A DNA stretch of 45,391 nt from Solirubrobacterales bacterium (GTDB taxonomy: Bacteria > Actinomycetota > Thermoleophilia > Solirubrobacterales > 70-9), in NCBI GenBank assembly GCA_036561205.1, contig DATBPT010000059.1, positions 1-45,391 of the forward strand, in the 5' to 3' direction. Under the pieces are notes generated by a model that was given only the letters and a program-made list of their open reading frames with translations, was not told where the DNA came from and ran no database searches. The translations under genes were made by a program, and so were the position numbers. Below, in pieces: positions 4,532 to 10,775 of the stretch (position 1 is the first letter of the stretch; the number at the start of each line of letters is the position of its first letter).

Positions 4532-5292
4532 GCGAACGCAGGCCGCTGCTGTGGCACATCCCGGTCTCTCACTACAGCGAGAAGGCCCGCTGGGCGCTGG
4601 CCTGGAAGCGGGTCGAGCACGACCGCCGTGCACCGATCCCCGGCGCCCACATCGCATACGCCCTGTGGCTCACCCGCGGCGCCTACAAGACGTTCCCGGT
4701 CCTGCGCCTCGAGGGGCGCAACATCGGCGACTCGAGCGCGATCATCGCCGCGCTCGAGCAGAGCCGGCCCGAGCGCCCGCTGTATCCCGAAGACCCGGCC
4801 GACCGCCGCCGGGCGCTTGAGCTCGAGGACTGGTTCGACGAGCAGCTCGGCCCGCAGATCCGCCTGCTCGCCTGGCATGAGCTGCGGGCCGACCCGGCGC
4901 GGATGGAGGAGCTCGGCCACGGGATGATGCCGCGCGCGATTCGCGACAACCGGTTCGTCCGCGCGGCGTCCGGACGCTTCGGCTCCGCCTATGTGCAGCT
5001 GCGTTTCCGCGTCGCCGACGAGGGCAAGGCGGCCACGGCGAGGTCCGGGGTGATCGAGGCGCTCGACCGTCTCGAGGCCGAGCTCGACTCCGGCGGCGGC
5101 GAATATCTGGTCGGCGAGGCGTTCTCGGTCGCCGATCTGACCGCGGCGTCGCTCCTCTATCCGGTCGTCAACCCGCCCGAGGGGCCGCGGATCATCCCCG
5201 ACGGGAACCCGGCGCTGGAGCAGTTCTTCGGTCCACTCCGCGAGCGTCCCGGCGGCCGCTGGGTGAGCGAGATGTTCGCCCGCCACCGCTAG
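4528..5292 (+). CDS. Glutathione S-transferase family protein
   Basis: 254 aa starting at the internal ATG of track ORF 4150... The N-terminal thioredoxin-like part reads LLWHIPVSHYSEKARWALAWK...FPVLRLEGRNIGDSSAIIAALE. A helical C-terminal domain follows (GEAFSVADLTAASLLYP). Confidence 0.75.
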   Translation: MSERRPLLWHIPVSHYSEKARWALAWKRVEHDRRAPIPGAHIAYALWLTRGAYKTFPVLRLEGRNIGDSSAIIAALEQSRPERPLYPEDPADRRRALELEDWFDEQLGPQIRLLAWHELRADPARMEELGHGMMPRAIRDNRFVRAASGRFGSAYVQLRFRVADEGKAATARSGVIEALDRLEAELDSGGGEYLVGEAFSVADLTAASLLYPVVNPPEGPRIIPDGNPALEQFFGPLRERPGGRWVSEMFARHR

Positions 5293-5299
5293 ACGGTGG

Positions 5300-5776
5300 T
5301 CAGGCGATCTCGACGATCGCCTCGACCTCGACCGGGACGTCGAAGGGGAGCTGGGCGGCGCCGATCGCCGAGCGCGCATGGCGGCCGGCCGGATCGCCCC
5401 AGAGCTCGAGGATCAGATCGGTGAACCCGTTGATCACCGCCGGCGGCTTGTCGAACCCCGGCGCACACTGGACCAGGCCGAGCGCCTTCACCCATTGGCG
5501 CACCCGGTCGAGGTCGCCGAGCTCCGCCTGCAGCGACGCCAGGATCGAGAGCGTCGTCAGCCGCGCGGCCTCGATTCCCTGCTCGAGGTCGAGCTCGCCT
5601 CCGACCCGGCCGGTGGCCAGGACATCGGGGCCGTCCATCGGCAGGTGGCCGGAGACATAGGCGAGATTGCCATGGACGTGGACCAGGTCGAACTTGAATT
5701 CGACCCCGGGGGGCGCCGCGAACGGCCGCGGCAACTCGAGCCCGAGCTCGCTCAGCCTGTCGGTGATCCGTCCCAT
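5300..5776 (-). CDS. RidA/YjgF-like (endoribonuclease L-PSP family) protein
   Basis: 158 aa. ...NLAYVSGHLPMDG...ARLTTLSILASLQAELGDLDRV...RHARSAIGAAQLPFDVPVEVEAIVEI is the typical RidA-fold family pattern. Confidence 0.85.
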   Translation of the reverse strand: MGRITDRLSELGLELPRPFAAPPGVEFKFDLVHVHGNLAYVSGHLPMDGPDVLATGRVGGELDLEQGIEAARLTTLSILASLQAELGDLDRVRQWVKALGLVQCAPGFDKPPAVINGFTDLILELWGDPAGRHARSAIGAAQLPFDVPVEVEAIVEIA

Positions 5777-5805
5777 CCCAACCGGAATCTAGCCTGTGCG
5801 ACGAG

Positions 5806-8800
5806 GTGAGCATTCCACGAGCCATCGGTACAGGTGAGGAGCAGGATCGAAAGTCGTTGCGCGGGGCCGAGCTGCGTAGCCTGCCGCGGCCGAGTCGCCT
5901 GGCTACCCCGATCTCCTCGCTCAAGGGTGCGGGGCCGAAGCTGACGGCGGCCGCCGCCGCGATTGGGATCGAGACCCTGGAGGACCTGCTCTGGCACGTG
6001 CCCCATGGTCACCGCGACCGCGCCGGCGTCCGCGAGGTCGCCGATCTGCGGATCGGCGAGGAGGCGACGGTGATGGTCTCCGTCCGCTCGGCCCGAGTGC
6101 GGCCGACCAGGCGGCGCAACCTGAGGTTGGTCGAGGCCGCGGTCTCGGATTCGAGCGGGCCGATGAAGGCGGTTTGGTTCAACCAGGCCTATCTCGCCGA
6201 GCGGCTGCAACCGGGCACCCGCCTGCTCCTCAACGGCAAGCTCGATCGCTCCGGCTTCCGGGTGGCCACCCACGAGATCGTCGCCGGCGGCGGGCCGGCG
6301 CCGGCAAAGGCCGGGCTCCACACGACCGGGATCGTCCCCGTCCACAACGCCACCCGCGAGCTCTCCGCGAACCGGCTGCGGGAGTGGATCTGGCAGGCGG
6401 TCGGCCGGGCCGGCGACGCGATTGAGTCGCTGCCCGCCGAGCTTCGAGTCCGTCGCCGCCTTGCCTCGCAGTCCGACGCGCTTCGCTGCGCCCACTTCCC
6501 GGACTCGCCGGAGCAGGGAACTATGGCCCGGGACAGGCTCGCTTTCGAGGAGCTCTGCTTACACCAGGCGGCGTTGGCGATGCGCCGTGGGGCCCGTCGT
6601 GACGCACGGCCCGGGATCGCCTTCGAGCCCGCCGGCGAGCTGGTCGCCGGCTGGCTCGATTCGCTGCCGTTCGAGCCGACCGCGGGTCAGCTCGGCGCCT
6701 TCGACGAGATCGACGCCGACCTCGCGGCGGGGCGGCCGATGCAGCGGCTGCTGATGGGAGAGGTCGGCAGCGGCAAGGCGCAACCGCTTGATGCGCTTGT
6801 TCTGACGCCCTGCGGGTTTCGGACCATGGGGTCGCTCGAGGTCGGCGATGCGGTGACGGCGCCGGATGGCACGGCCGCGGAGGTCGCCGGGGTCTTCCCG
6901 CAAGGGGTCCGGGATGTTTGGCGGGTTTCGTTCTCGGACGGGACGTCGGCCGAGTGCGACGCCGATCACCTTTGGGAGGTGCAGACGAGCTCCGCGCGAT
7001 GGCGCGGAGACGCGAGGAAGGTCATGACACTGCGAGAAATCGCAGCTGACATGCTTCGGCCGTCTGGGAGTCCAAAGTGGCACGTGGAGCTTCCAGTTGC
7101 GGCCGACCTTGACGGGGCCGGTCCTAGGCCGTTGGACCCGTACTTGCTCGGTCTATTGCTTGGTGACGGGGGGCTGTCGATCCCGGATCGGGTCCGCTTC
7201 AGTAGCGCTGACGGCGAGCTCGTAGAGGCCGTCCGCCAACTGATTCCCGATGGGTGTCGGCTTCGGCGCGAGGCGACCCGACAGTACGACTGGCTCGTGA
7301 TGGGTGCCAGGCTCGCGGTTGACAAGGCCGCGCTGCGCCGTGCACGGCGCGGCGATCGGGTCTCCCTGGCAGCTGCCTATGACGGCGGGGCTAGCTGCGA
7401 GATGATCGGAGAGCGGATCGGCCTCGGCCCTGGGACTGTGCGTTACCACCTGCTTCGCCATGGCGTCCGAATGCGAACCCCGCATCGCTCGATCAACGTG
7501 GTCCGCCAGGCGCTTGACTCGCTCGGTTTGATGGGTAAGCGATCAGCTGCGAAGTCCGTGCCGAGGCCTTACCTGGTCGCCCCCGTCATCGATCGTCACG
7601 CTCTGCTGCAGGGCCTTCTGGACACCGATGGAACGCTGGATGCGAAGAGCGGTTCCAACGTGAGTTTTACATCAGCCTCTCGCCAGCTCGCGGAAGACGT
7701 CGCGTGGCTTGTCCGTTCACTGGGCGGGCGTGCACGTTGTCGATCGGTAACAAAGGCTGGCGGGGAGTATTGGACGACAAGTGTTGCCCTCCCCAACGAG
7801 TATCCGCCGTTTCGGCTGCGCAGGAAAGCGCGCCTAGTTCGGCCGCGAACGAAGTACGCGCACCCAGCAAAAGGGATCGTCGCTGTCGAGCCCGTTGGGC
7901 GGAAGCGGGTGCAGTGCATTGCGATCACGCACCCGAGCCAGCTCTACATCACGGATGGGTTCACGATTACCCACAACACCGTGGTCGCCGTCTACGCGAT
8001 GCTGCGGGCGCTCGAGGCCGGCCGCCAGGCGGCGATGATGGCGCCGACTGAGACGCTCGCCGAGCAGCACGCGGCGACGCTCGACGCCCTGCTCGCGCCG
8101 ATCGAGGGGATGGCGATCCCGTTCGCGCTGCTGACCGGGGCGACGCCGCCCGCCCGCCGCCGCGAGACGCTCGGGCGCCTGGCCAGCGGCGAGCTCGGGC
8201 TCGTCGTCGGCACGCACGCGCTGATCGAGCCCGACGTGCGCTTCGGCGGGCTCGCGGTATGCATCGTCGACGAGCAGCACCGCTTCGGTGTCCGCCAGCG
8301 CGCGGCGCTCGACGCCAAGGGGCCGGGGGAGGCGGCGCCGCACGTCCTCCACATGACCGCGACGCCGATCCCGCGAACGCTCTCGCTGACCGCCTACGGC
8401 GACCTCGACGCGACCACGATTCGGGAGCTGCCCGCCGGTCGCCGGCCGGTAAAGACCTGGGTCGTCGGCGAGGAGAAGCGCGCCGGTGCCTACGAGTTCA
8501 TCCGCGAGCGCCTGCGGGAGGGGCGCCAGGCATACGTCGTCTGCCCGCTGGTCGCCGACTCCGAGAAGTTGCGAGCGAAGGCGGCCGGGGCGGAGGCCGA
8601 GCGCCTGCGCGCCGGCGAGCTGGCGGACTTCCGGATCGGCCTCCTGCACGGCCAGATGTCGTCGCGAGAGAAGGCCGAGGCGATGGACGAGTTCGTCGCC
8701 GGGCGCACCGACGTGCTCGTGGCGACGACCGTGATCGAGGTCGGGATCGACGTCTCCAACGCGACCGTGATGCTGATCGAGGGCGCCGAGCGCTTCGGCC

Positions 8801-9180
8801 TCTCGCAGCTGCACCAGCTTCGCGGCCGGGTCGGGCGCGGCGAGCACGAGAGCCAGTGCATCCTCTTCGCCGACCTCGAGGGCCAGTTCGCGAAGCGCCG
8901 GATGGAGGCGATCGAAGGCAGCAGCGATGGCTTCGAGCTGGCCGAGGTCGACCTGGTCCTGCGCGGCGAGGGCGAGATCCTGGGCACGCTCCAGCACGGT
9001 CTGCCGCGCTACCGCGTCGCCGAGCTGCCCGAGGACGCCGAGCTGCTGGCGGCGGCGCGGGCCGAGGTCCTGGCGCTGCTGGAGCGATACGGAAGCCTCG
9101 ACGTTCCCGATCTCGGGCCCTTGCTCGACGCCGCCCGCGCCCGCTTCGGCGACGAGCGGGTCGAAGGGATCGCGGCTTGA
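5806..9180 (+). CDS. recG: ATP-dependent DNA helicase RecG precursor, interrupted by an in-frame intein
   Basis: 1124-aa ORF with a wedge/OB region at the N-terminus. The Walker A motif is split: LLMGEVGSGK | 400 aa | TVVAVYAM. DEQH box (IVDEQHRFGV), motifs TATPIPRTL and QLHQLRGRVGRG, and a C-terminal RecG tail are present. Exteins sum to 724 aa, a normal RecG size. The GTG start at 5806 is the most upstream candidate and is uncertain. Confidence 0.95.
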   Translation: MSIPRAIGTGEEQDRKSLRGAELRSLPRPSRLATPISSLKGAGPKLTAAAAAIGIETLEDLLWHVPHGHRDRAGVREVADLRIGEEATVMVSVRSARVRPTRRRNLRLVEAAVSDSSGPMKAVWFNQAYLAERLQPGTRLLLNGKLDRSGFRVATHEIVAGGGPAPAKAGLHTTGIVPVHNATRELSANRLREWIWQAVGRAGDAIESLPAELRVRRRLASQSDALRCAHFPDSPEQGTMARDRLAFEELCLHQAALAMRRGARRDARPGIAFEPAGELVAGWLDSLPFEPTAGQLGAFDEIDADLAAGRPMQRLLMGEVGSGKAQPLDALVLTPCGFRTMGSLEVGDAVTAPDGTAAEVAGVFPQGVRDVWRVSFSDGTSAECDADHLWEVQTSSARWRGDARKVMTLREIAADMLRPSGSPKWHVELPVAADLDGAGPRPLDPYLLGLLLGDGGLSIPDRVRFSSADGELVEAVRQLIPDGCRLRREATRQYDWLVMGARLAVDKAALRRARRGDRVSLAAAYDGGASCEMIGERIGLGPGTVRYHLLRHGVRMRTPHRSINVVRQALDSLGLMGKRSAAKSVPRPYLVAPVIDRHALLQGLLDTDGTLDAKSGSNVSFTSASRQLAEDVAWLVRSLGGRARCRSVTKAGGEYWTTSVALPNEYPPFRLRRKARLVRPRTKYAHPAKGIVAVEPVGRKRVQCIAITHPSQLYITDGFTITHNTVVAVYAMLRALEAGRQAAMMAPTETLAEQHAATLDALLAPIEGMAIPFALLTGATPPARRRETLGRLASGELGLVVGTHALIEPDVRFGGLAVCIVDEQHRFGVRQRAALDAKGPGEAAPHVLHMTATPIPRTLSLTAYGDLDATTIRELPAGRRPVKTWVVGEEKRAGAYEFIRERLREGRQAYVVCPLVADSEKLRAKAAGAEAERLRAGELADFRIGLLHGQMSSREKAEAMDEFVAGRTDVLVATTVIEVGIDVSNATVMLIEGAERFGLSQLHQLRGRVGRGEHESQCILFADLEGQFAKRRMEAIEGSSDGFELAEVDLVLRGEGEILGTLQHGLPRYRVAELPEDAELLAAARAEVLALLERYGSLDVPDLGPLLDAARARFGDERVEGIAA
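6778..7977 (+). mobile_element. Intein (400 aa) with LAGLIDADG homing-endonuclease domain, inserted in the RecG P-loop
   Basis: Block A-like AQPLDALVLTPCGFRTMGSLEVGD follows GSGK directly. Block B is GTSAECDADHLW. The LAGLIDADG motifs are YLLGLLLGDGGL and LLQGLLDTDGTL. Block F is RVQCIAITH and block G is GFTITHN, followed by +1 Thr, which restores GSGKT. A/T content is visibly higher than in the flanks: 34/60 G+C in 7021-7080 versus 48/60 in 8161-8220, hand counted. Confidence 0.9.
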
Positions 9181-9713
9181 GGGTCACCGGCGGGCGCCTC
9201 GGCGGCCGCACGTTGCTGTCGCCGCCGGCGCGCTCGCGCGACGTTCGCCCGACCTCCGATCGCGCTCGCGAGACCCTGTTCTCGGTCCTTGGCGACGTCT
9301 CCGACCTCAGCGTCCTCGACCTCTTCTGCGGCACCGGGGCACTGGCGATCGAGGCGATCTCGCGCGGCGCCGACTCGGCCGTGCTCGTCGATCGGGCACC
9401 GGCGCTGGCGCGGCGCAACGCCGAGGCGCTCGGAGTAGCGAACCGCTGCGAGCTCGTCCGCGCCGACGCCGTCCGATACCTGGAGCGCAGCGAGGAGCGC
9501 TTCGGGCTCGTCTTCTGCGACCCGCCCTATAAACTCGCCGCCCGCCTTGAGCCGGAGCTCGCGAAACACCTGCCCCCGCGTCTCGCCAGGTACGCCCGCC
9601 TCGTGGTCGAGAGCTCGGCGCGCCGCCCGCTCGAGATCGAAGTGCCGAAGCTGCAGGCGGTCGACGAGCGGCGGATCGGCGAGGCGTTGATCAGAATTTA
9701 CGAGAGCAGATGA
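9177..9713 (+). CDS. rsmD: 16S rRNA (guanine966-N2)-methyltransferase RsmD
   Basis: A TTG at 9177 overlaps the recG TGA. LRVTGGRLGGRTLLSPP...RPTSDRARETLFSVL...LDLFCGTGALAIEAISRGA...FCDPPY is the RsmD signature. The upstream 918 nt of track ORF 8259.. is an Arg/Gly-rich alternate frame of recG and was rejected. Confidence 0.85.
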   Translation: MRVTGGRLGGRTLLSPPARSRDVRPTSDRARETLFSVLGDVSDLSVLDLFCGTGALAIEAISRGADSAVLVDRAPALARRNAEALGVANRCELVRADAVRYLERSEERFGLVFCDPPYKLAARLEPELAKHLPPRLARYARLVVESSARRPLEIEVPKLQAVDERRIGEALIRIYESR

Positions 9714-10210
9714 ACGGGAGCGCAAAGATCGCCGTCTGCCCGGGTAGCTACGACCCGGTCACCAATGGCCATTTGGACATCATCGGCCGCACCTCGCGCG
9801 TCTTCGACAAGGTGATCGTCGGCGTCGTCGGCCAGGGGATCCGCAAGTCGAAGTCGCTGTTCAGCGCCGAGGAACGGCGCGACTTCCTGGTCGAGGCGAC
9901 GGCGGACCTGGACAACGTCGAGATCGAGATCTTCACCAACCTGGTCGTCGACTTCGCCCGCGAGCACGGCGCCAGCGTGATCGTCAAGGGCATCCGCGCG
10001 ATCTCCGACTTCGAGTACGAGCTCGAGATGAACCAGCTCAACCGCAAGCTGGCGCCGGAGATCGAATCGGTGTACGTGTTCGCCTCGCCGGACTACAGCT
10101 TCCTCTCTTCGACCGGGGTCAAGGAGATGGCGACCTTCGGCGCCGACATCGGCGACCTCGTCCCGGCGCCCGTGGCCGCGGCACTCAAGCAGCGCGCCCA
10201 GCGCGACTAG
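9710..10210 (+). CDS. coaD: Phosphopantetheine adenylyltransferase
   Basis: 166 aa. AVCPGSYDPVTNGHLDIIGR (HxGH nucleotidyltransferase motif) and ...VKGIRAISDFEYELEMNQLN. ATGA overlap with rsmD. Confidence 0.95.
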   Translation: MNGSAKIAVCPGSYDPVTNGHLDIIGRTSRVFDKVIVGVVGQGIRKSKSLFSAEERRDFLVEATADLDNVEIEIFTNLVVDFAREHGASVIVKGIRAISDFEYELEMNQLNRKLAPEIESVYVFASPDYSFLSSTGVKEMATFGADIGDLVPAPVAAALKQRAQRD

Positions 10211-10307
10211 CGCCCCACCGCGCCTGGGCAGGAGCTTGCAACGGGGCGCCGAAAACCGCCTCTAGCGGCCGATCCGTGCACGGCCGCGTAAGCTTCCACG
10301 ACCGTTT

Positions 10308-10775
10308 ATGGACGTCCTGGTCCTGATTGACAAACTCGACGACCTGATCCACAACGCGCGGCCCGTGCCGCTCACGGATCAGGTTCGCGTCGATCGCGAG
10401 GAGATCTACGATCTGCTCGACCAGATGCGTGCGACGATCCCCGAGGAGATCAAGCAGGCGCGCTGGATCGTCAAGGAGCGCCAGGAGATGCTCGCCGAGG
10501 CAAAGCGCGAAGCGGAACGGGTGGTCAAGGAGGCGCGCGAGCAGTCCGAGCGGCTGATCTCCGACGAGGAGGTCTACAAGCAGGCGGAGCGCGCGGCCGA
10601 GGAGATCATCGAGGACGCCCGCGAGACCGAGCGCCAGATCCGCCTCGGGGCCGAGGACTACGCCGACGAGATCCTCTCCACGCTCGAGGTCAACCTCGAG
10701 AAGTTCCTCTCCGCCGTGCAGCGCGGCCGCGACCGGCTCGCCGGCCGCGACGAAGAGCCGGTCGAGGTTCAATAA
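10308..10775 (+). CDS. Coiled-coil protein of unknown function (E/R/A-rich, ATP synthase b / V-ATPase G-like heptad region)
   Basis: 155 aa. The N-terminal DVLVLIDKLDDLIHNARPVPLTDQVRVDREEIYDLLDQMR is followed by a long charged helix (EIKQARWIVKERQEMLAEAKREAERVVKEAREQSERL...). No catalytic motif was seen. Confidence 0.7.
   Translation: MDVLVLIDKLDDLIHNARPVPLTDQVRVDREEIYDLLDQMRATIPEEIKQARWIVKERQEMLAEAKREAERVVKEAREQSERLISDEEVYKQAERAAEEIIEDARETERQIRLGAEDYADEILSTLEVNLEKFLSAVQRGRDRLAGRDEEPVEVQ

Follow-up and report, generated by a model that had tools for sequence, protein, structure and literature searches.

The window analysed here, a 45,391-nucleotide (nt) stretch of DNA from a Solirubrobacterales bacterium (assembly GCA_036561205.1, contig DATBPT010000059.1, positions 1–45,391 of the forward strand), contains a chromosomal recG gene whose open reading frame (ORF) is interrupted in the Walker A box. 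This gene very probably encodes a 1124-residue precursor carrying a class-3 bifunctional intein with a homing endonuclease, the splicing of which would restore a 724-residue RecG.

The host protein is RecG. Pfam identifies RecG_wedge, DEAD, Helicase_C and RecG_dom3_C in the 1124-residue ORF, with LAGLIDADG_3 in mid-protein, and the match to the NCBIfam RecG equivalog NF008168 reaches 745.7 bits against a cutoff of 718 and falls into two parts, on either side of residues 325–724; the wedge, the two helicase domains and a score above the equivalog cutoff with the insert skipped place the protein in RecG. In the alignment with RecG of T. maritima (PDB 1GM5; expectation value (E) 4.5e-129), precursor residues 32–324 fall on chain residues 113–402 and residue 725 falls on chain residue 403, which puts the insert precisely between Lys402 and Thr403 of the Walker A sequence GSGK/T (slashes mark junctions). 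The first-pass annotation, made from the sequence alone, had described a RecG interrupted in Walker A by 400 codons, the removal of which from ORF 5806–9180 leaves a normal 724-residue RecG; the 1GM5 alignment and the two-part NF008168 match bear this out, excision in silico rejoins GSGKT in a protein of that length, and the insertion point after GSGK is precise when compared with 1GM5 and with the uninterrupted GSGKT of relatives. No collinear non-intein domain occurs at this point in any of the close RecG orthologues compared. The gene and its parts are as follows, with lengths in amino acids (aa).

5806–9180, forward strand: recG precursor ORF (1124 aa, GTG start, stop included).
5806–6777, forward strand: N-extein, 324 aa, comprising the wedge/OB domain and the beginning of helicase domain 1 (RecG_wedge E 9e-15; 1GM5 residues 113–402).
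6757–6777, forward strand: Walker A part GEVGSGK, closing the N-extein.
6778–7977, forward strand: intein, 400 aa, Ala1 to Asn400 (ORF residues 325–724).
6778–7107, forward strand: N-terminal splicing (HINT) subdomain, about aa 1–110 (from the 6bs8 and gp41-1 alignments; the limit at aa 110 is approximate and taken from the secondary structure of the AlphaFold (AF2) model).
6778–6816, forward strand: block A, AQPLDALVLTPCG.
6940–6975, forward strand: block B, GTSAECDADHLW, with Asp61 (B7), His64 (B10) and Trp66 (B12).
7144–7176, forward strand: LAGLIDADG motif 1, LLGLLLGDGGL (catalytic Asp130 at 7165–7167; model helix 121–130).
7324–7491, forward strand: insertion of about 55 aa (about aa 183–238) between the endonuclease halves (from the AF2 model and the inter-motif distance).
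7603–7638, forward strand: LAGLIDADG motif 2, LLQGLLDTDGTL (catalytic Asp284 at 7627–7629; best LAGLIDADG_3 stretch aa 275–329).
7906–7962, forward strand: block F, RVQCIAITHPSQLYITDGF, with Cys380 (F4; 7915–7917) and Tyr390 (F15).
7963–7980, forward strand: block G, TITHN and Thr+1, with Thr398, His399 and Asn400 (Thr+1 at 7978–7980).
7978–9180, forward strand: C-extein, 400 aa and stop, beginning with the Walker A Thr and followed by the remainder of helicase domain 1, Helicase_C and RecG domain 3 (aligned to 1GM5 residues 403–762).

Class-3 inteins are defined by a non-nucleophilic residue 1, a Trp/Cys/Thr triplet and Ser or Thr at position +1 (PMC2807308), and all of these are present in the intein, which reads AQPLDALVLTPCGF...GFTITHN between the flanks GEVGSGK and TVVAVYAM. 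Residue 1 is Ala (GCC at 6778), not Cys, Ser or Thr, and its position is fixed by the agreement of the 6bs8 alignment, the RecG junction and the Ala found there in 101 of 112 homologues. Two residues past the block-B His is the Trp of the triplet (His64-Leu65-Trp66); the Cys is Cys380 in VQCIAI, matched in the alignment to the catalytic Cys in VRCVEV of 6bs8; and the Thr is the block-G5 residue of Thr398-His399-Asn400. The +1 residue is the Walker A Thr itself. A block-B DxxH motif, described for class-3 inteins (PMC6195587), is formed by Asp61 and His64, and Tyr390 is the block-F aromatic residue. These positions hardly vary across the 120 best homologues (His 115/116, Trp 116/116, Cys 115/116, Thr398 116/116, Asn400 114/115), and +1 is Thr or Ser in 115 of 115 (Thr 108, Ser 7). 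The first-pass annotation had listed the Hint blocks with Ala1, His at B10, Trp at B12, a block-F Cys, Thr at G5 and Thr+1, and had read them as class-3 hallmarks; every motif lies where it was quoted.

The hallmarks are accompanied by homology to experimentally characterised class-3 inteins. A phmmer comparison with the class-3 DnaB intein of M. smegmatis (PDB 6bs8) gives E 1.7e-8 with both termini in register: intein residues 3–69 align to chain residues 3–70, and VQCIAI...THN aligns to VRCVEV...THN. The termini are also matched by gp41-1 and by the class-3 DnaB-1 intein of M. chimaera (6rix/6riy). In the AF2 model, which was built on 12 sequences (pLDDT 90.4, pTM 0.83), the splicing subdomain superposes on 6bs8 with a root mean square deviation of 1.1 Å over 70 columns at 38% identity (Foldseek). 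The class-3 hallmarks are thus joined by homology in both sequence and predicted fold.

With its Walker A loop split, the precursor should be inactive as an ATPase. The order of events that would relieve this follows the published class-3 mechanism and residue roles (PMC2807308, PMC7664689, PMC6195587), in which a Cys-His-Thr triad operates (PMC7664689) and a thiol-labile branched intermediate forms on an essential block-F Cys (PMC2807308). As Ala1 is unable to start an acyl shift, Cys380 would attack the Lys(–1)-Ala1 peptide bond, helped by His64 of the DxxH motif, Thr398 and Trp66, to give a thioester branched intermediate. The N-extein would then be handed to the side chain of Thr+1, cyclisation of Asn400 would free the intein, and an O-to-N shift would rebuild GSGKT and with it an active 724-residue RecG. 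Class 3 is a mechanistic class, and for the RecG intein the block-F branched intermediate, splicing and endonuclease activity are all predictions.

Inserted into the splicing domain is a two-motif LAGLIDADG homing endonuclease. Pfam LAGLIDADG_3 matches the intein with E 7e-12 (45.9 bits, cutoff 22.5), the profile match that was to be expected if the earlier assignment was right, and both motifs retain the acidic residue attributed to them, Asp130 and Asp284, which are kept at 112/116 and 116/120 of the homologous positions. The predicted fold is like those of PI-SceI and I-DmoI, the best Foldseek match of the whole model being the TliVMA intein (E 2e-17), with template modelling (TM) scores of 0.65–0.67 for PI-SceI. 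Comparison with the only other carrier found (L001, described below) gives a ratio of non-synonymous to synonymous substitution rates (dN/dS) of 0.06 across endonuclease residues 241–345; in residues 111–182 the proportion of synonymous differences (pS) is saturated and hence yields no finite ratio. These data support an intact endonuclease domain under purifying selection, with cleavage activity predicted. The freed intein would be a monomeric endonuclease that cleaves recG alleles lacking the intein where they encode Walker A, and repair from an intein-bearing copy would copy the element in. Homing of this kind would explain the patchy distribution, which together with the purifying selection lends the predicted site-specific double-strand cleavage of the intein-less allele indirect support.

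Between the endonuclease halves is the segment of aa 183–238, which accounts for the roughly 50 residues by which the window intein exceeds most of its relatives. The LAGLIDADG motifs are 143–145 aa apart in homologues P0001, P0002 and P0005 against 46–98 aa in 94 others; an insertion of the same type is found in the window intein, these three and P0022, and an equivalent one in the 398-aa RecG inteins P0121, P0123 and P0127. The AF2 model shows three short helices (194–202, 207–214 and 218–227). Pfam helix-turn-helix (HTH) matches to the window's own segment are all below threshold, and a PDB sequence search with it gives chance-level matches only (E about 0.7); the orthologous insert of P0127 exceeds the cutoffs of HTH_23 (26.5 against 24.6) and HTH_58 (26.5 against 23.8) and also matches NUMOD1 weakly. 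On the strength of the model and of P0127, we infer that the segment is a helix-turn-helix DNA-binding module gained by one subgroup of RecG inteins, in which it would serve in DNA binding.

The intein is absent from the nearest relatives of its host. A scan with the whole precursor against one genome per species returned 80 loci, the closest being metagenome-assembled genomes (MAGs) of Solirubrobacterales with a best-segment identity of at most 92%, in which a match of about 2.16 kb runs through an unbroken GSGKT; a tblastn search with the intein matches none of these closest Solirubrobacterales relatives. LLMG[DE]VGSGKT is common to 48 species representatives, all intein-less, with empty sites identical to the window flanks at 26–39 of 42 nt; the empty site of the closest of them (L003) is GGCGAGGTCGGCAGCGGCAAGACCGTGATCGCCGTTTACGCG. 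Three intein-less loci, from long-read MAGs (L016, L057 and L074), show frame shifts a few codons past GSGK(T), at locus positions of about 2940–2990, which are probably indel errors of the kind seen in L001. At L076 (2882–3152; Thermoleophilaceae MAG DATMJO010000152), RecG similarity ends right after GSGKT, that is, at the intein site of the window, and is followed to the contig end by about 250 nt of unrelated sequence with no similarity to the window intein; the assembly may have broken at a polymorphic site, or the locus may carry a different insertion.

The sole other carrier found is L001, on a 294-kb metagenome contig (ERZ25039533) that is syntenic (5100–10100 to window 5306–10768) at about 80% DNA identity. 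Its intein (6097–7296) occupies the same site and shares 70.5% amino-acid identity with that of the window. The recG frame of L001 is broken by many 1-nt indels in CG-rich contexts, and neighbouring genes are broken too; as the indels occur contig-wide and also affect the neighbours, they are likely to be assembly errors. About 48 indels, mostly of 1 nt, are scattered over 4.3 kb of extein and neighbouring-gene sequence, yet the net indel count of the 1.2-kb intein is zero, and this uneven spread, like the change of the terminal Asn to Lys discussed below, is left without explanation by assembly error. Considered in view of L001, the possibility that the window recG is a pseudogene was rejected, the window ORF being intact and the L001 indels contig-wide.

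Base composition and divergence set the intein apart from its host gene. The first-pass annotation had noted its locally lower G+C (34/60 at 7021–7080 and 48/60 at 8161–8220, both counts exact) and suggested horizontal acquisition. Over its whole length the intein has a GC fraction of 0.650, against 0.720 and 0.736 for the exteins, and a third-position GC fraction (GC3) of 0.718 against 0.877 and 0.948. In-frame 200-codon segments of the other ORFs in the window have a mean GC3 of 0.91 (standard deviation 0.06), and the 0.685–0.74 of intein segments lies below their 5th percentile (0.786). A similar drop in overall GC fraction is seen in L001 (intein 0.607, flanks 0.735 and 0.757). Between the two carriers, Nei–Gojobori pS is 0.46 in the N-extein, 0.245 in the C-extein and 0.747, a saturated value, in the intein, where the non-synonymous proportion (pN) is 0.19 and dN/dS about 0.05 overall. 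Divergence at fourfold sites is 0.08–0.58 in the exteins and 0.47–0.88 in the intein, with a sharp step at the C-terminal junction (0.70 before it, 0.08 just past it). From these figures the two intein copies, though under protein-level constraint, parted long before their host genes did, as repeated horizontal homing, rather than simple co-inheritance, would predict. Support for horizontal acquisition thus extends beyond G+C to the 48 empty relatives, the GC3 outlier and the synonymous step at the junctions.

Identity of the spliced gene (window 5806–9180) to L003 is mosaic, being 0.91 at the 5′ end, 0.75–0.81 on both sides of the insertion and 0.87–0.94 towards the 3′ end; the stretch concerned is nt 450–1200 of the spliced gene, with the junction at 972, and other relatives are likewise less similar around the junction. 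This is no more than suggestive of a tract of co-conversion or recombination around the intein, being compatible with local rate variation too.

Several points weigh against an intein that both splices and homes. The splicing reaction, its block-F intermediate and the cutting of DNA are each predicted from sequence, and the Trp/Cys/Thr triplet grafted onto a class-1 intein gave no splicing (PMC7664689), so activity cannot be taken for granted from the hallmarks. The terminal intein codon of L001 is AAG (Lys), not AAC (Asn); if real, it would mean that splicing can be lost in the lineage. The weaker codon bias of the intein could partly raise its synonymous divergence, so that a separate history is not required. 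An insertion that does not splice, leaving recG a pseudogene or RecG with a permanent extra domain, would accommodate this Lys codon and the broken frame of L001, but is extremely improbable given a window ORF intact across 1124 codons, the presence of all splicing residues, exteins under purifying selection (C-extein pN 0.053 against pS 0.245), indels that reach the neighbouring genes of L001 as assembly errors would, and close orthologues free of a non-intein domain at the site. Splicing by another route, such as a class-2-like one in which Thr+1 attacks the N-terminal junction directly, finds room in that the literature yielded no mechanistic test of a RecG intein; class-2 inteins, however, lack the triplet and use Cys+1 (PMC2807308), whereas triplet and DxxH are present and conserved in this intein family and the closest solved structures are class 3, which makes such a route very improbable.

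More weight, though still as an unlikely account, attaches to an intein that splices but no longer homes, being a vertically inherited passenger kept since imprecise loss destroys Walker A. Endonuclease cleavage is itself a prediction, the syntenic L001 with about 80% nt identity has its intein at the same site, as inheritance would allow, and mini-inteins of 234–283 aa, with the endonuclease apparently lost, occupy this RecG site in other lineages, so that decay does happen. Both catalytic Asp residues are nevertheless retained, the dN/dS of 0.06 in residues 241–345 indicates constraint (pS in 111–182 being saturated), all 48 of the nearest species representatives are without the intein, and the sharp step in synonymous divergence at the junctions argues for different histories of intein and host gene. 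The intein might also be kept as a stress-sensitive switch, oxidation of Cys380 pausing splicing, which would be compatible with a homing, splicing class-3 intein. By analogy with the M. smegmatis DnaB intein, which shares the mechanistic class and an equivalent P-loop site and for which oxidation-paused splicing has been described (PMC6195587), a Cys nucleophile accompanied by Cys12 and Cys60 in the splicing domain could act in this way, and selective retention at P-loops has been argued (PMC4760082). We regard it as quite unlikely, as the partner Cys48 of the M. smegmatis intein aligns with Val47 and so patchy a distribution (0 of 48 relatives) speaks against host benefit. Equally speculative, and given little credence here, is the combined proposal that the HTH module widens or retargets endonuclease recognition while Cys380-dependent splicing makes RecG maturation conditional on redox state or stress; if true, it would mean post-translational control of a branch-migration helicase in soil actinobacteria, beyond a passive parasite.

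Around the intein-bearing gene, the order fakA/DAK2, GST, ridA (reverse strand), recG, rsmD and coaD is the usual chromosomal RecG neighbourhood. Across the window (1–45391), no tRNA gene, no Rfam family at gathering score and, by tblastn, no second intein was found.

With this occurrence the poorly studied soil lineage Solirubrobacterales gains a class-3 intein that is well preserved, has its endonuclease and is probably still mobile. One carrier, one diverged carrier and 48 empty-site relatives offer a natural comparison for homing and intein turnover at a P-loop, and the intact endonuclease with its HTH module may interest meganuclease engineering and the study of how homing endonucleases gain DNA-binding modules. 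The additions are modest (a host lineage, a clean contrast of presence and absence, and the HTH-bearing subgroup), and knowledge of inteins or of RecG itself is unchanged.

Among known systems, the two-part architecture of HINT domain and inserted two-motif LAGLIDADG endonuclease is shared with the PI-SceI/VMA inteins (1vde, 1lwt and 7qsu; Foldseek E 2e-17 to 1e-13, TM 0.58–0.67), which differ in being class 1 (Cys1), in their host protein, in sequence (13–15% identity) and in carrying an extra DNA-recognition region in the splicing domain, with no HTH between the endonuclease halves, where one is predicted in the window intein. Closer in the splicing domain are DnaB intein 1 of M. smegmatis (6bs8) and DnaB-1 of M. 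chimaera (6rix/6riy), which have Ala1, DxxH, Trp, block-F Cys, Thr-His-Asn and Ser or Thr at +1 as in the window intein and are likewise inserted after the Walker A Lys. They are, however, mini-inteins without an endonuclease, in DnaB of SF4 rather than RecG, and the redox partner Cys48 of the former corresponds to Val47. The class-3 prototype, the DnaB intein of mycobacteriophage Bethlehem, is full-length with an endonuclease domain and resides in a helicase, as here, with similar block spacing (His65/Trp67 against His64/Trp66; Cys320...Asn341 against Cys380...Asn400; PMC2807308), but has Pro1 in place of Ala1 and a phage host. Phage homologues of the window intein number 399 records, all below 60% identity and the full-length ones at about 26–31%.

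The wider intein family also occupies GK/T sites in SNF2, CpaF, RecA, AAA_24 and terminase, as well as PhoH (MRGR/T) and FtsH (NGY/S). The last two are sites outside the P-loop: in PhoH (P0045 and P0049) the junctions read ...LAFMRGR/AQP...THN/TLNDAFIILDEAQ, just before Walker B, and in FtsH-like proteins (P0015 and P0024) ...TNGY/AQP...THN/SPAM. PhoH hosts form the majority of the 120 best homologue matches. These come from a word-indexed search in which all 120 matches listed are shorter than 700 aa and the 1124-aa protein of the window is not among them; counts of RecG hosts taken from it are underestimates, since full precursors (1030–1360 aa) appeared only in an exhaustive search of cluster representatives. 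That search, with a 600-aa junction query, yielded ten representatives that are full RecG precursors (P0121–P0209; JGI name RecG), with inteins of 234–398 aa and the junction GSGK/AQP...THN/T in 10/10.

The best relatives of the window intein are RecG inteins at this same junction in Actinomadura, Spirillospora, Streptomyces and unnamed Actinomycetota (including P0003, P0009, P0037 and P0043). They share its host protein, junction and hallmark residues at 45–71% identity in full-coverage matches and, being the best-scoring relatives with the same junction, form one allelic family with it. Unlike them, the window intein resides in Solirubrobacterales (Thermoleophilia), where the 48 nearest species representatives are intein-less, and in contrast to most RecG inteins (234–345 aa) it belongs to the HTH-bearing subgroup of 398–400 aa. 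A literature search for the phrase 'RecG intein' found no paper. InBase reportedly listed RecG inteins of Streptomyces avermitilis and Thermomonospora curvata. Tori et al. 2010 (PMC2807308) include RecG in the proteins that host class-3 inteins, and it is one of the 15 most intein-rich bacterial proteins of Novikova et al. 2016, with 12 inteins, all in Actinobacteria (PMC4760082). The first-pass annotation had left open whether the RecG insertion was already catalogued; with both RecG inteins and class-3 RecG inteins in this literature, a class-3 intein at the RecG P-loop is already known in kind, and the window copy is a further member.

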